Shown in pieces: positions 22,745-35,021 of a DNA stretch of 64,000 nt. The position numbers were made by a program, and so were the translations under genes. The notes under the pieces were generated by a model. That model ran no database searches. It was not told where the DNA came from and saw only the letters and a program-made list of their open reading frames with translations. How positions within the stretch are numbered: position 1 is the stretch's first letter; each line of letters opens with the position of its first letter. The stretch is from NCBI GenBank assembly GCA_023129115.1, contig JAGMCR010000001.1, forward strand, positions 1-64,000, in the 5' to 3' direction. The DNA comes from Candidatus Iainarchaeum sp. Lineage in GTDB: Archaea; B1Sed10-29; WALL01.

Positions 22745-22815
22745 GCAGAGGTAGCAAAATGGCTTTGCACCCGCCTGCAGAGCGGGAGATGGGGGTTCAA
22801 ATCCCTCCCTCTGCT
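22745..22815 (+). tRNA. tRNA-Cys(GCA), intronless, CCA not encoded
   Basis: Acceptor GCAGAGG/CCTCTGC, discriminator U, D stem GCAA/TTGC, anticodon arm CCCGC-CTGCAGA-GCGGG, T arm GGGGG-TTCAAAT-CCCTC, followed by T-run. Confidence 0.95.
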
Positions 22816-22832
22816 TTTTTGGAGTGCTGTCT

Positions 22833-23786
22833 ATGCAGCTAAACAAAATCTTGTTGGTCGGCTATGGCGAAGAGGCTCTTGAGCCAAAGCAATGGGAGCG
22901 CCTCGACGGCTTGGCCAAAGAGCGCGTTCTGCTGCCGAAGGGCAGCCCCGAAATCCCAAAGCATTTTGCTGGCACTGACTGCCTTCTCGTCAAGCTGGGT
23001 GCGACAGTTGACAAAAGCATGATTGACAGCATGCCCGGCCTGAAGTACATTGGCATGCTCGGCACAGGCTGCGGCAGGATTGATGTGGCCCACGCCGCTT
23101 CCAAAGGCATTACTGTCTGCAACATCGTTGGCTACAGCACCGAGAGTGTCGCCGAACTGGTATTTGCCCTAATCCTTGAGCACATTCGCGAAATAGAAAA
23201 AGCAAAAAAGCAGGCGAGGGAAGCCAATTATTCAGAAGACGGCTTCGGGGCATACGAGATAAAGGGCAAGGTATTCGGGGTCATTGGCCTCGGCAGAATC
23301 GGCGCCCGCACAGCAGAGATTGCGCTGAACGGCTTTGGGGCCGACGCCCGGTACTGGTCCAGGCAACGAAAAGAAAAATACGAGAAAGAAGGCGTGAAAT
23401 ACCAGGGCCTTGACTCTCTCTTGCAGGAAGCGGACTTTATTTCCATTCACATGGAGGCAAACAAAGAAACAAACGGCTTCTTGGGCCACGGCCGCGTCCA
23501 AAAAATCAAGCCCGGTGCAGTGGTCGTCAATACTGCCCCAATGGACGTGGTGGACATCAGCGCCCTCGCGGAAAGGCTGGGGAAAGGGGACCTAACATTT
23601 ATTCTGGACCATTCTGACGAGCTGTCAGAAGCAGACGCAAAAGAGCTTTCAAAATACAAGAACTGCATCATGTACCCCCCGATTGGCTATATATCGGACG
23701 AAGCCACGCTGGCCAAATTAGACATGTTTGTTGACAACATCCAAAACTTTTTGGAAGGAAAGCCCACCAACGTAGTGCAGGGGTGA
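22833..23786 (+). CDS. D-isomer-specific 2-hydroxyacid dehydrogenase family
   Basis: GKVFGVIGLGRIG, ADFISIH, VVVNTA; canonical catalytic Arg/His positions look altered (NTAP, YPPIG). Confidence 0.88.
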   Translation: MQLNKILLVGYGEEALEPKQWERLDGLAKERVLLPKGSPEIPKHFAGTDCLLVKLGATVDKSMIDSMPGLKYIGMLGTGCGRIDVAHAASKGITVCNIVGYSTESVAELVFALILEHIREIEKAKKQAREANYSEDGFGAYEIKGKVFGVIGLGRIGARTAEIALNGFGADARYWSRQRKEKYEKEGVKYQGLDSLLQEADFISIHMEANKETNGFLGHGRVQKIKPGAVVVNTAPMDVVDISALAERLGKGDLTFILDHSDELSEADAKELSKYKNCIMYPPIGYISDEATLAKLDMFVDNIQNFLEGKPTNVVQG

Positions 23787-23789
23787 AAG

Positions 23790-24443
23790 ATGGGAAACAA
23801 ATTCGTGTACGCCGGAATAGCATTCTTGGCAGTGGCGATCCTGCTCGCGGGCTGCACGAGCAACACTGCCCCCCTTAAGCCAATTCTCCCCGCGCAGACA
23901 GGCGACTTCGCTTATGAAATCACTGTGGAAAACATCGTTGGCTCCTTCAACTACACTCCCTCGTACACGCAAAGCGAATTGATTCTTGCTTTGGGCGAGG
24001 ACGCCCTGTTTGACGCGTCGTTCCCCGACGCAGTTATTTTGGCGCCTCCCTCGATTTCAGGCAGCGCCATGCTCTTCGCCAGCGGCACAGTAATCCTGAC
24101 GGGCTATAAGTCAAGCGAAAGCGTTTACGCGGCAGCCACTGAAGTCACGGCTCTCCTGCAGTCCAAGGGCCTCGAGGCCACGCCCGAAGGCCCTGCCAAG
24201 GTAAAAAACATTGTCGCGTCAATAAACCTCAACAAAACCCTGGACATCCCCGCCCTGCACCAAAAGCTTGGCGGGCAATACGAGCCAGACGAGTTCCCCG
24301 CGCTCGCCCTCTCGAACTACGTGCCGGGGTCAACAGTCACGTTCCTCGTGTTCCCGAACGGAAAAATCATTTCGAGCGGCGTCACGACAGAAGGCCTGCT
24401 CCCGGTGACGTTCGACTACGTCGTCATGCAAATCGAATCATGA
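23790..24443 (+). CDS. TBP (TATA-binding protein)-fold protein with N-terminal lipoprotein signal peptide
   Basis: Lipobox LLAGC after hydrophobic stretch; two TBP repeats: VENIVGS..SFPDAV..LFASGTVILTGYKS and VKNIVAS..QYEPDEFPAL..LVFPNGKIISSG. Confidence 0.85.
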   Translation: MGNKFVYAGIAFLAVAILLAGCTSNTAPLKPILPAQTGDFAYEITVENIVGSFNYTPSYTQSELILALGEDALFDASFPDAVILAPPSISGSAMLFASGTVILTGYKSSESVYAAATEVTALLQSKGLEATPEGPAKVKNIVASINLNKTLDIPALHQKLGGQYEPDEFPALALSNYVPGSTVTFLVFPNGKIISSGVTTEGLLPVTFDYVVMQIES

Positions 24444-24473
24444 ATATATAGTTCTTCTGCCTAAGTGGGAAGC

Positions 24474-24845
24474 ATGGAAGCCATTTCGACCAACAAAGCC
24501 CCTGCGGCCGTTGGGCCGTACTCGCAGGCGATTAAGGCAGGCAACTTCGTGTTCACCGCCGGGCAAATCGCGCTCACGCCCGAAGGCGAATTGGTCAACG
24601 GCGGCATCGCGGAGCAGACAGAGCAAGTGGTCCAGAACCTCAAGGCCGTGCTCGAAGAAGCCGGCACAACCATCCACAGCGTCGTCAAGACCACGGTCTA
24701 CCTCGCCCAGATGAGCGACTTCGCCCTCATGAACGAGGTGTACGGGGCACACTTCACGAGCAAGCCCGCCCGCTCAACAATCCAGGCAGCCAAAATCCCG
24801 AGAGGGGCGCTCGTCGAAATTGACGTCATCGCGGTGATGGAGTGA
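24474..24845 (+). CDS. ridA: RidA/YjgF enamine-imine deaminase
   Basis: APAAVGPYSQAI, GQI, VVKTTVYL, PARS, VEID. Confidence 0.95.
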   Translation: MEAISTNKAPAAVGPYSQAIKAGNFVFTAGQIALTPEGELVNGGIAEQTEQVVQNLKAVLEEAGTTIHSVVKTTVYLAQMSDFALMNEVYGAHFTSKPARSTIQAAKIPRGALVEIDVIAVME

Positions 24846-24958
24846 AACTAAAAGACAACAACTCAAAACACGAGGAATTTCTTCTTAAAATCCAACAACC
24901 AAAAATGAAAGAACTGTGGGATAACAAAGAAGACGAGGCGTGGGAAGTTTTGGAATGA
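24842..24958 (+). CDS. 38-aa peptide with antitoxin-like WDNKEDEAW motif (DUF2281-like tail)
   Basis: GTGA overlap with ridA stop and ATGA overlap with cupin start; MKLKDNNSKHEEFLLKIQQPKMKELWDNKEDEAWEVLE; not in ORF track. Confidence 0.65.
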   Translation: MKLKDNNSKHEEFLLKIQQPKMKELWDNKEDEAWEVLE

Positions 24959-25302
24959 GTTTCGAGCTATACAACATTCCCCAAGGCAAAATAGGAATCG
25001 CCTACTCCGGGAAAGACTTCAGCACCGGCTACCTCGAGCTCGAGCCAGGCACAGAGCTCGCCAAGCACAACCGCCCGGTCCTCGAGCAACTCATGCAGAT
25101 AAAAGGGGCGTCGACGATGATTATGTTCGACGGCGACGAGCAAAAAGAAATCGTCATGGAAGTCGGCGACAAGCTCGACATCCCCGCAGGACAATACCAC
25201 GCCCACGCCAACACAGGCACGGAAAGCTCTATCACGCTGTGGAAGGCCAGCGGCGACATCACTGAAATCATCGACGCGATACGCAAATCATCGGAGATGT
25301 AG
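24955..25302 (+). CDS. Cupin domain protein
   Basis: LAKHNRPVLE...G and GDKLDIPAGQYHAHAN cupin motifs. Confidence 0.85.
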   Translation: MSFELYNIPQGKIGIAYSGKDFSTGYLELEPGTELAKHNRPVLEQLMQIKGASTMIMFDGDEQKEIVMEVGDKLDIPAGQYHAHANTGTESSITLWKASGDITEIIDAIRKSSEM

Positions 25303-32821: not shown

Positions 32822-34014
32822 ACGTGCGCCAGGACTTCCCAATACTCGAGAAGAGGATTAACGGAAGCCCAATCATTTACATGGACAGCGCGTGCATGGC
32901 GCTGAAGCCAAGGCAAGTCGTCGACGCCATGAACGAGTACTACACAGACTTCACAGCGTGCCACGGCAGGAGCGCGCACGCGTTCGCGCAGGAGACCACG
33001 CGCCGCTTCGAGGCCGCTCGCCAAACGGTCGCAAAGTTCATCGGCGCGGCAAGCAGCGAAGTCGTCTTCACGCGCAACACGACCGAGGCAATCAACATCG
33101 TCGCCAACGGCCTTGACTTGGTAGGCGGCACGGTCGTCACCACTAACCTGGAGCACAACTCCAACCTTTTGCCGTGGCTCCGCCTGTCCAAGCAGGGAGT
33201 CACGCACAAAATGGTCCCGGTCGAGGAAAACGGCGCGCTCGACTTGGAAAAGCTTGCCGAGGCCGTCGACAAAAACACTCGCCTGGTCTCGCTCGTGCAC
33301 ACTTCCAACGTGACCGGCGCGACTATTGACGCGCGCGAGGCAGCGAAGATTGCGCACGACAATGATGCCCTTCTCCTGCTGGACTCTGCGCAGGCGGCGC
33401 CCCACGTTCCAATCAACGCCAAAAAGAGCGGCGTGGACTTCCTCGCGTTCTCGGGCCACAAGATGCTCGGCCCCTCGGGGACCGGCGCCTTGTACGGCAA
33501 GAAGGCCCTTCTCGAGGAGCTGGACCAGTTCATCGTTGGCGGCAGCACGGTCAAGGACGTTTCGGCGGACGGCTGGGTGCCGGAGGAAGTGCCCGGCAGG
33601 TTCGAGGCGGGGCTGCAGGACTACGCGGGAGTGCTTGGGTTCGCGGCGGCGGCGGACTACTTGACGCGCATTGGCATGGGCAAGGTGCGGGACTACGAAA
33701 AGGCTTTGGGCGCAAGGCTGCTCGAGGGCTTGGCGGGGATTGACAAGCTCACGGTCATTGGCGGGGACGCTCCGGAGCGCACCGCGCTCGCGTCGTTCGT
33801 TGTTGAGGGAGTGGAGCCGCACGACATCGCGATGATACTGAGCGAGTCGCACAATATTTTCCTGCGGTCGGGCATGCACTGCGCGCACTTTTACCACAAG
33901 GAGGTGGGCCTGCCGAAGGGGACTGTCCGAGCAAGCCTTTATATTTACAGCACTGAAGAAGAAATAGACACTTTCGTGTCCGCGCTTTCGGGCGCCGTAA
34001 ACACTTTCGCGTGA
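32818..34014 (+). CDS. sufS: Class II cysteine desulfurase (SufS/CsdA-like)
   Basis: VRQDFPIL, EHNSN, FSGHKMLGPSG, RFEAG, RSGMHCA. Confidence 0.9.
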   Translation: MNVRQDFPILEKRINGSPIIYMDSACMALKPRQVVDAMNEYYTDFTACHGRSAHAFAQETTRRFEAARQTVAKFIGAASSEVVFTRNTTEAINIVANGLDLVGGTVVTTNLEHNSNLLPWLRLSKQGVTHKMVPVEENGALDLEKLAEAVDKNTRLVSLVHTSNVTGATIDAREAAKIAHDNDALLLLDSAQAAPHVPINAKKSGVDFLAFSGHKMLGPSGTGALYGKKALLEELDQFIVGGSTVKDVSADGWVPEEVPGRFEAGLQDYAGVLGFAAAADYLTRIGMGKVRDYEKALGARLLEGLAGIDKLTVIGGDAPERTALASFVVEGVEPHDIAMILSESHNIFLRSGMHCAHFYHKEVGLPKGTVRASLYIYSTEEEIDTFVSALSGAVNTFA

Positions 34015-34019
34015 TTGTT

Positions 34020-35021
34020 ATGAAAAAGTTTTTTGTTCTCGCACTAATCGTTTTGCTCGTGGGCTGCACGCAGCCAGAGGCGACCCCTGCTCCGGCCGCA
34101 ACGCCTACTCCCACTCTAACCGGGGGGCCGTCGGTTGACGGCCCCCCCAGTTCTTCTGGGAATGAGTCCGCCAGCCCCCGGGAAAACGAGTCTATCCCAA
34201 CCCCAACCCCTGACCCGTACTTGTCCGTCGACGTGGGCCAGGTGCTGGAGAAAGGGCTTTTCGAGCTAACGATTGTGTCTGTCGGGGAATACACCCACAC
34301 GACGCCGTTCGGCGAGGAAGTCATGGACTACCGCGTGGACCTTGGGATACAGAACACCGCGGGCACTGAAGAAGAGTACTGGTTCGATTACGAGCTCCAC
34401 GGCGACTCTGGGCAGTACCCGGTGCAGTGGTATTCCCCGCTTTACGCAAAGGGCGTGCTCGGCGCGAGAGAAAAGCTAAGCAGCTCCGTGCTTTACGGCG
34501 TCGGCGGCAGCAAGGGCCCGTTCAAGCTTCTGGTGCGGTCGATTCCGCTGTCGAGGAACGACTACATGGACGTAATCGGCGAGAACGAGCTGGACAAGCC
34601 GGTCGTGGGGGTAATCAACTACGGCGACACTTGCGGCGAGAGCGCGCTGGCCGACGACTACCTCGGCCCGCTCGCGGGCACCGGCGCGTGCGGCGGCATT
34701 TCCGCGGCGCGGGACTGGTTCAACTACCCGTCGTGGATTGAGGAGGGTGTCGTGATTACGCGGCTCAAGCTCAAGAACAACGCTGAAGAGCCGGCCACGG
34801 TCTTTGTGGTGGACGAGGTGCCGGCAAGGTGGGGCGTAACCGCGCGGGACCTGTCGTATACGCATGAGCCTATTTTCCTGGACGATTACCACCCCGCGTG
34901 GTTCGTGAGGCTGGGCAGGAACGAGATTTGGGTGACGCAGGTGAATTTCACGACGTATCTCGAGCAGTCCGAAATCGAGGCTTTGCCGAAGCCAGTGGCC
35001 ACGGCAGTGGATTACGCTTAA
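34020..35021 (+). CDS. Hypothetical lipoprotein
   Basis: MKK + hydrophobic + LVGC lipobox, PT linker, acidic beta-rich body. Confidence 0.8.
   Translation: MKKFFVLALIVLLVGCTQPEATPAPAATPTPTLTGGPSVDGPPSSSGNESASPRENESIPTPTPDPYLSVDVGQVLEKGLFELTIVSVGEYTHTTPFGEEVMDYRVDLGIQNTAGTEEEYWFDYELHGDSGQYPVQWYSPLYAKGVLGAREKLSSSVLYGVGGSKGPFKLLVRSIPLSRNDYMDVIGENELDKPVVGVINYGDTCGESALADDYLGPLAGTGACGGISAARDWFNYPSWIEEGVVITRLKLKNNAEEPATVFVVDEVPARWGVTARDLSYTHEPIFLDDYHPAWFVRLGRNEIWVTQVNFTTYLEQSEIEALPKPVATAVDYA

Follow-up and report, generated by a model that had tools for sequence, protein, structure and literature searches.

The TBP lipoprotein locus

The window analysed here is a stretch of 64,000 nucleotides from Candidatus Iainarchaeum sp. 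(assembly GCA_023129115.1, contig JAGMCR010000001.1, positions 1 to 64,000 of the forward strand), a DPANN archaeon whose genome comprises 19 contigs and 1.25 Mb and is 88.6% complete. The gene in question, at 23790–24443 (+), is an open reading frame (ORF) with an ATG start and an intact frame that encodes 217 amino acids. Its product carries two repeats of the TATA-binding protein (TBP) behind an N-terminal signal and a lipobox, and is called the TBP lipoprotein below. As far as sequence can define it, it is a Sec lipoprotein, which would put a familiar domain in an unprecedented cellular place. An earlier note on this DNA had described the same arrangement, with MGNK, a hydrophobic stretch and LAGC ahead of two TBP repeats, and all of these elements are present at the positions given here. 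The features of the gene and its leader are as follows.

23780–23786, +, Shine-Dalgarno-like GGGGTGA, read from the sequence 4 nt 5' of the ATG; a putative ribosome-binding site
23790–23852, +, predicted signal peptide, residues 1–21, with the n-region MGNK and a 17-residue hydrophobic h-region
23844–23855, +, lipobox L19-A20-G21-C22, from the pattern census; C22 is the sole cysteine in the protein
23856–23909, +, Thr/Ser/Pro-rich tether, residues 23–40, modelled as disorder followed by a short extra strand (33–37) before strand S1
23910–24179, +, TBP repeat 1, residues 41–130, the more diverged repeat; N48, V50, F78, F96, T104 and K107 are kept and the basic columns at A85, S90, T100 and Q124 are lost
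24180–24443, +, TBP repeat 2, residues 131–217 and stop; N140, V142, Y164-E-P166, F169-P170, F188 and K192 are kept and the basic columns at S175 and T199 are lost

The GGGGTGA motif overlaps the TGA stop codon of the upstream 2-hydroxyacid dehydrogenase gene, and the two genes are therefore probably translated from one transcript. The 3' end of the 16S rRNA was searched for as an anti-Shine-Dalgarno check and was not found. In-frame start codons past the lipobox are a GTG at residue 46, TTG codons at residues 64, 68 and 84 and an ATG at residue 94. GTG-46 is thus the sole in-frame start between the lipobox and residue 63; it has no Shine-Dalgarno-like motif, and initiation there would cut most of strand S1 (residues 40–56 in the model). 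No start codon after the lipobox leaves the whole TBP core, and the start downstream of the lipobox that the earlier note had named as grounds for abandoning its proposal is not what these codons offer.

Contigs from two further runs read through from the signal into the TBP domain, one with no difference and the other with a single one, which makes a chimera of assembly unlikely, with the limit that all runs come from one study and are not fully independent. The lipoprotein sequence is near-identical in three samples, and the run label is cold seep metagenome (saline sediment); none of the three runs with this stretch is listed as RNA. The contig of run X3 (depth 6.1) has a C>T change at 23923 that replaces Thr45 by Ile in strand S1.

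TBP identity and predicted fold

The ORF matches Pfam PF00352 in two stretches (68 bits, E 6.4e-19; cut-off 22.9), and a six-frame scan of the genome that scores the repeats singly gives 27.1 bits for 23919–24161 and 44.2 bits for 24198–24398. A phmmer search of the PDB returns 35 distinct TBP-containing sequences, the best being the Sulfolobus TBP 1mp9 (1.7e-17). The AlphaFold2 (AF2) model, built on an alignment with 110 TBPs, has a mean predicted local distance difference test (pLDDT) score of 87.3, with values of about 95 from residue 40 on and low values for residues 1–30. Foldseek aligns this model with solved TBPs at E ~1e-14, a template modelling (TM) score of 0.82–0.89 normalised to the target and a root-mean-square deviation of ~2 Å over ~175 columns, and the saddle of two lobes, each with the order strand, helix, four strands and helix, is found in the model. 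The Pfam threshold places the protein in the TBP domain family, and it is predicted to form a two-repeat saddle. The Pfam search and the AlphaFold/Foldseek comparison had both been proposed as checks in the earlier note, which would have taken the lack of a TBP fold match as a refutation; both give such a match.

At the level of functional TBPs the result is different. All ten NCBIfam TBP models are missed (10/10), with scores of 43.9–74 bits against cut-offs of 181–347, and overall identity to TBPs is ~27%. Judged as a functional TBP, the TBP lipoprotein falls short in that it misses the NCBIfam cut-offs, lacks most of the basic rim, carries a targeting signal that a cytoplasmic protein would not have and is not conserved in related genomes.

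Signal peptide and lipobox

MGNK at the N-terminus is followed by FVYAGIAFLAVAILLAG and C22, which makes the lipobox L-A-G-C. Lys4 is the only charge ahead of the hydrophobic helix, as in a signal peptide, and the lack of a twin-arginine motif means that the signal would be of the Sec type. The AF2 model has a helix of low pLDDT at residues 4–20, followed by pLDDT values of 52–74 over residues 21–40. For comparison with other members of the family, 154 TBP-family proteins were used, with the phmmer search covering the best 150 of 1171 matches at E ≤ 0.001. Over this set, the 15-residue hydropathy window of 2.66 at the N-terminus of the TBP lipoprotein is the sole value of at least 2.0, and a strict or loose signal-lipobox pattern occurs in 1 of the 154, this protein. 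The statement of the earlier note that no membrane-anchored extracellular TBP was known agrees with this, as none is found among the 153 other TBP-family matches or in the literature searched.

The occurrence of such signals in the genome was assessed with a strict pattern (Met, Lys/Arg, a hydrophobic run and [LVI][ASTVI][GAS]C, with the Cys at about residues 15–35) applied to 1231 greedy non-overlapping ORFs of at least 80 amino acids from the 1.25-Mb genome. Nine ORFs match, all with L[AV]GC and most with a Thr/Pro-rich tether after it. None of the reversed proteins match, and shuffled N-termini give a mean of 0.05 matches over 20 rounds, with a maximum of 1. The lipobox signal in the TBP ORF is not a chance match, and the motif is used elsewhere in the genome, in eight other ORFs with L[AV]GC after a signal-like N-terminus. 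A looser census over 6424 six-frame ORFs had given 14 matches, of which two or more are plainly spurious.

Another lipobox protein is encoded in the window at 34011–35021 (+); it has 336 amino acids, LVGC, a Pro/Thr-rich tether, a mature part with an isoelectric point (pI) of 4.33 and no Pfam family. One study (PMC12462473) predicts a high prevalence of lipoproteins among DPANN archaea and reports the candidate lipidation enzyme AliA from them "with some gaps".

Acidic composition

The TBP lipoprotein has a pI of 4.36 as a whole and 4.27 in its mature part, which bears out the acidity claimed for it from the letters. It contains 0 Arg, 8–9 Lys (8 in the mature part) and 19 Asp and Glu residues, with a net charge of about −11. 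For the 110 aligned TBPs, the median values are 7.3 for the pI and 24 for the number of Lys and Arg residues, and the three single-repeat TBPs of the same genome (vide infra) have pI values of 5.4, 8.0 and 10.9. In the proteome, the median pI is 8.9, 10.9% of ORFs lie below 5 and 3.2% below 4.4, and Arg makes up 5.7% of residues; ORFs free of Arg number 3 of 1231, the TBP lipoprotein among them. The mature parts of the lipobox proteins are acidic in 9 of 9 cases, with pI values of 4.05–4.6 and Arg contents of 0–4.6%. Acidity is a signature of the surface lipoproteins of this organism and fits export of the TBP lipoprotein. This composition would also account for the lost basic residues more simply than a change aimed at DNA binding itself.

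The DNA-contact face

The Asn, Val, Phe and Thr columns considered here are those that we take, from the structures of TBP-DNA complexes, to contact the minor groove. Nine of these 10 columns are kept (N48, V50, F78, F96, T104, N140, V142, F169 and F188), and the single exception is Ser196, where 70 of the 110 TBPs have Thr. The two asparagines and four phenylalanines that had been described as retained are among them. Phe occupies the columns of F78, F96, F169 and F188 in 94, 97, 106 and 106 of the 110 TBPs, respectively, and Asn occupies the columns of N48 and N140 in 106 and 104. More generally, 22 of the 33 columns that are conserved in at least 70% of the 110 TBPs are kept, among them all the Gly and Pro turns of repeat 2.

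The basic columns, defined as those in which 50% or more of the TBPs have Lys or Arg, are kept in 2 of 8 cases (K107 and K192), against a median of 6 for the 110 TBPs. The Arg/Lys column after the FPG motifs holds Ala85 in repeat 1 and Ser175 in repeat 2, as the earlier note had noticed; the MAFFT alignment is shifted by one position near the FPD of repeat 1, where neither Leu84 nor Ala85 is basic. Of the 110 TBPs, one keeps 2 basic columns, three keep 3, six keep 4, 26 keep 5, 26 keep 6, 34 keep 7 and 14 keep all 8. The count for the TBP lipoprotein is at the extreme of this distribution, not beyond it. Since 4 of the 110 TBPs keep equally few, the lost basic residues are a weak argument against DNA binding.

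Orphan status and half-size TBPs of the lineage

Homologues were sought among 1.84 billion representatives of ~15 billion proteins. At E ≤ 1e-30, the TBP lipoprotein itself is the only match among these representatives, and the next has 88 bits and 32% identity; its cluster at 90% identity has one member. A word-based homologue search returns five proteins, with itself alone close, and a look-up in a protein atlas gives TBP clusters only, at a score of 0.81, which is a lead at most. A close homologue was not found in 40 related genomes, which include two of the same genus that are 89% and 84% complete, and the best match there other than itself is an ordinary TBP (2.5e-14). A counterpart was also not found in the 30 other genomes of the class: across the 31, low-scoring repeats occur in this genome only, and other full-length matches score 51–106 bits, all but two of them at least 68, with two short partial TBP matches of 41.6 and 66.5 bits in one genome (G020). 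The earlier note had proposed that homologues be checked for the lipobox, which did not come about, as no homologues were found at all.

It had also asked whether a canonical tbp exists elsewhere in the genome. A canonical two-repeat tbp was not found in the 88.6%-complete assembly; instead, a genome scan detects three strong single-repeat TBP genes.

L001 1483–1749, −, single-repeat TBP, 88 amino acids, 104.5 bits
L002 1480–1773 (equivalent to C1:64322–64615, just beyond the window end), +, single-repeat TBP, ~97 amino acids, 95 bits
L003 1486–2157 (G000:C15), −, single-repeat TBP, 223 amino acids, 78 bits, with a Lys-rich N-terminal half

Single-repeat TBP frames of ~90–120 amino acids are also found in relatives from the same genus, family and order. 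The third of the genes listed (L003) has an N-terminal tail of ~130 residues that is extreme in Lys, Ala and Thr, with 58 Lys and a pI of 10.9, and a similar 230-residue frame is present in a same-genus genome (G002:C1:17915–18172). The tail has a weak match to the histone-H1-like HC2 family (17 bits, under the cut-off), and the protein resembles a fusion of one TBP lobe with a tail that would coat DNA.

Two-repeat TBPs do occur in families f8, f6 and f22 (L010, L011, L013, L015 and L016), and both repeats of each fall in one clade with the single-repeat TBPs, with a support of 99 in the Shimodaira–Hasegawa-like approximate likelihood ratio test (SH-aLRT). This suggests that a half-size TBP gene was doubled again in some lineages. 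A further form of the family is P0140, a DPANN "hypothetical protein" of 702 amino acids with a 726-residue frame at G014:C8:9538–10695. Its four PF00352 repeats (237 bits) are followed by a Lys/Arg stretch, a single hydrophobic helix at ~440–460 and a C-terminal domain of ~240 residues, and it is probably a membrane-tethered multi-TBP protein that faces the cytoplasm.

Origin of the gene

The gene has a GC content of 56.6%, against 56.0% for the genome, and a third-position GC content (GC3) of 71%, like that of neighbouring genes. Repeat 2 scores 38–44 bits against eight single-repeat TBPs of the class, seven of them from its own family or order, 28–32 bits against the genome's two other half-size paralogues and 20–35 bits against the repeats, first or second, of two-repeat TBPs. 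Repeat 1 reaches 10–21 bits with all of these sequences, and a comparison of the two repeats with each other yields 2 bits.

The two query repeats, 10 single-repeat TBPs and 36 two-repeat TBPs, each of the latter with both repeats, make up the 84 rows of a quick maximum-likelihood tree; of the 36, 24 are the first 24 of the 110 alignment members to pass a length filter. When repeat 2 is forced into the well-supported clade of class TBPs, the log-likelihood is 1.67 higher than in the free search, and the placement is not rejected by the approximately unbiased (AU) test (p-AU 0.50). Taken together, the GC and GC3 match, the repeat-2 scores and the AU result favour a home-grown origin, probably from the lineage's own half-size TBP.

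Genomic neighbourhood

The order of genes around the TBP lipoprotein is cysteine synthase, tRNA-Cys, 2-hydroxyacid dehydrogenase, TBP lipoprotein, RidA, cupin and cysteinyl-tRNA synthetase (CysRS). The nearest features are as follows.

22745–22815, +, tRNA-Cys, at the upstream edge of a four-gene block (dehydrogenase, TBP lipoprotein, RidA and cupin)
22824–23786, +, D-isomer 2-hydroxyacid dehydrogenase, upstream, with its stop 3 nt before the ATG
24465–24845, +, RidA/L-PSP family protein, downstream after a 21-nt gap

CysRS is 67% identical to that of a related Candidatus Iainarchaeum metagenome-assembled genome (MAG). In the corresponding region of that MAG (L026 1255–4428, compared with 22745–25302 of the window), the four-gene block is missing, and a LAGLIDADG endonuclease ORF in its place comes after cysteine synthase and immediately before CysRS. 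ARAGORN finds no tRNA there, and the tRNA-Cys of this MAG may be interrupted.

In the same-genus genome G002, the dehydrogenase (86% identical) and RidA (75%) lie on one contig, ~11 kb apart. The stretch between them (G002:C9:5853–16761; L106 and L108) contains a gene for a TraG P-loop/HerA-type ATPase and, directly upstream of RidA, membrane-anchored orphans of 270 and 210 amino acids; these ~11 kb may be an integrated mobile element. The slot between dehydrogenase and RidA thus holds different, species-specific envelope proteins in close relatives, which is the behaviour of an accessory surface gene and not of a core transcription factor.

The 210-residue orphan (P0161) was considered as a diverged counterpart of the TBP lipoprotein, and no relationship was found: BLASTP gives E 1.2 and hhalign against the TBP alignment a probability of 0.1%. 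A search found no homologues of P0161, and single-sequence AF2 modelling gives a pLDDT of 39.8, too low for use.

Proposed function and alternatives

The reading that we prefer, with a probability of about 0.6, is that the TBP lipoprotein is a species-specific surface protein of native origin: a TBP saddle exported by Sec and lipid-anchored at Cys22, with no role in transcription and with the concave sheet as its binding face. Residues 1–21 would take the prolipoprotein across the membrane, cleavage before Cys22 of the LAGC motif would leave a lipid-anchored N-terminus, and the Thr/Ser/Pro tether of ~18 residues would hold the two-lobed saddle on the outer face of the membrane. On the evolutionary side, a half-size TBP gene would have been doubled or fused within the lineage and would then have gained the signal peptide, with fast divergence following, towards the acidic and Arg-free composition of the organism's other surface lipoproteins. 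Transcription would be left to the three strong single-repeat TBP genes, and the concave beta-sheet face would grip an extracellular partner. The native origin, the lost transcription role and the binding face are parts of this scheme that we infer; the concave face is taken as the working surface because its uncharged lining of Asn, Val, Phe and Thr has been kept. As for the partner, we lean towards a non-nucleic-acid ligand or the surface of another cell, with cation-assisted binding of DNA as the main alternative. The earlier proposal of an exapted TBP paralogue on the cell surface stands to this extent, that a predicted TBP saddle does lie behind a lipoprotein-type signal that is used elsewhere in the genome.

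Several points weigh against this scheme. Export and lipidation are predictions from motifs and composition, and the census and pI statistics behind them use a crude greedy ORF call and no curated annotation. The agreement in fold does not count separately from that in sequence, because TBP sequences made up the alignment behind the AF2 model. No homologues exist in which the signal might be seen to be conserved, which would be the strongest test, and a singleton may be an evolutionary transient. Neither query repeat is placed with support in the tree, where their end branches are 1.57 and 2.35. Finally, 4 of the 110 TBPs are ordinary, very acidic proteins that keep just 2–3 basic columns (three of the four lowest, P0119, P0042 and P0111, have pI values of 4.05–4.23), and the kept contact columns and the YEPxxFP stirrup of repeat 2 could mean that binding of DNA or of transcription factor B (TFB) is still selected.

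The last of these points leads to the alternative of an extracellular DNA receptor, in which the anchored saddle would grip the minor groove of DNA, as food or for uptake, with porewater cations in place of Lys and Arg. Cations have been proposed to stand in for basic residues in very acidic TBPs, and the three acidic TBPs just named show that a count of 2–3 of 8 basic columns is compatible with an ordinary member of the family. The saline setting indicated by the cold seep label would suit such a mechanism, and 9 of 10 contact columns, including all four Phe and both Asn, are kept despite an identity to TBPs of ~27%. However, with 22 of 33 conserved columns kept throughout, the retention of 4 of 4 Phe is unremarkable, and the net charge of about −11, the absence of Arg and the 2 of 8 basic columns are not what a DNA receptor would be expected to have. 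The neighbours are ordinary metabolic genes, and the SNase (PF00565), Endonuclease_NS (PF01223) and ComEC (PF03772) families were not found in the 88.6%-complete genome. A receptor for DNA appears unlikely.

Quite unlikely as well is a young orphan with little or no function, that is, a duplicated TBP with a chance signal-like leader that is drifting in a variable region and is perhaps not even expressed. Such a gene would be expected to be a singleton, as this one is among ~15 billion proteins, and to be missing from the two same-genus genomes, where it was not found; the differences in the slot between close relatives and the very long branches also suit it. Against this, the frame of 217 codons is intact, the conserved columns are kept to the extent described above, the model is confident and the sequence is near-identical in three samples. 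A coherent shift to the composition of surface proteins, moreover, takes many substitutions under selection.

A third alternative keeps the protein inside the cell. The N-terminal helix would then be an anchor that is not cleaved, and the saddle would serve on the cytoplasmic side as a transcription factor, either sequestered or specialised, as P0140 seems to be; that protein indicates that TBP repeats linked to the membrane do occur in the class. The kept DNA-contact columns and repeat-2 stirrup are consistent with it, but the helix ends in a perfect lipobox that is identical to those of eight other proteins here, and its single preceding charge, Lys4, is what a signal peptide would have. In composition the protein is like surface lipoproteins and unlike the basic cytoplasmic proteome, and the basic columns that face the DNA backbone are lost. 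A cytoplasmic orientation is unlikely. The suggestion that this is an ordinary cytoplasmic TBP paralogue with a mis-called start, translated from after the lipobox, is hardly credible, since the in-frame GTG at residue 46, although it lies just before ENIV, would remove most of S1 and lacks a Shine-Dalgarno-like motif, would leave 135 nt of "non-coding" sequence reading as a perfect signal and lipobox (0.05 expected by chance per 1231 ORFs) and would not explain the missing Arg and the acidic pI.

If the protein is exported, the TBP saddle is a fold that can be re-used outside transcription, and the gene is a natural experiment in the adaptation of a cytoplasmic DNA-binding domain to the outside of the cell. 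TBP is among the most conserved and most studied DNA-binding folds, and every TBP case that we know of or found works inside the cell on DNA. The species-specific surface lipoproteins of DPANN archaea are prime candidates for contact with a host or substrate. Should the DNA-receptor alternative prove true, this would be a DNA-acquisition device of a genome-reduced archaeon, for nucleotide scavenging or uptake, with no known counterpart. The case is limited to one gene from one uncultured species and has no relatives; the genome nevertheless holds half-size, Lys-tailed half-size and putatively exported double versions of the TBP fold side by side, and is useful for the study of TBP duplication and fold drift.

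Comparison with known systems

An exported, secreted or lipid-anchored TBP was not found by full-text searches of the literature, and in the survey of the TBP superfamily by Brindefalk et al. 2013 (PMC3597702) none of the terms signal peptide, transmembrane, secreted and lipoprotein occurs. Archaeal lipobox lipoproteins are described in work on the AliA/AliB pathway (arCOG02177/02178) in Haloferax volcanii (PMC12462473). The TBP lipoprotein is like them in its predicted n-region, h-region and lipobox, in the lack of a twin-arginine motif and in its acidic mature part. We know of no lipoprotein whose cargo is a TBP domain.

The canonical archaeal TBPs (Sulfolobus acidocaldarius, 1mp9; Methanocaldococcus jannaschii, 2z8u; Pyrococcus woesei, 1pcz and 1ais) have the same two PF00352 repeats and the same saddle, with target TM scores of 0.78–0.82. 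The TBP lipoprotein resembles them in its minor-groove Asn, Val, Phe and Thr residues and in the YEPxxFP stirrup of repeat 2, and differs from them in its signal and lipobox, the absence of Arg, the pI of 4.3, the 2 of 8 basic columns, the lack of orthologues and a strongly diverged repeat 1. The eukaryotic TBP-related factors TRF2/TLF/TBPL1 do not bind TATA and have lost the intercalating Phe, yet they keep the saddle and are still nuclear transcription factors. Both they and the TBP lipoprotein thus keep the saddle with an altered DNA-binding chemistry, and the TBP lipoprotein differs in that it keeps the Phe, loses the basic rim and gains an export signal.

The two remaining comparisons are with forms closer to home. 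P0140 is similar in that a TBP-family domain is tied to the membrane in the same archaeal class, but its repeats precede the helix and the Lys/Arg stretch, it is basic, it scores 237 bits and it has no lipobox. Single-repeat (monopartite) TBPs include TbpA of Halobacterium and the half-size TBPs of DPANN, as covered by Brindefalk et al. 2013 (PMC3597702). Repeat 2 of the TBP lipoprotein is closest to the half-size TBPs of its own lineage, which differ from it in having one repeat, a cytoplasmic location, a Lys-rich composition and Pfam scores of 78–105 bits, whereas the TBP lipoprotein combines two unlike repeats with an export signal.

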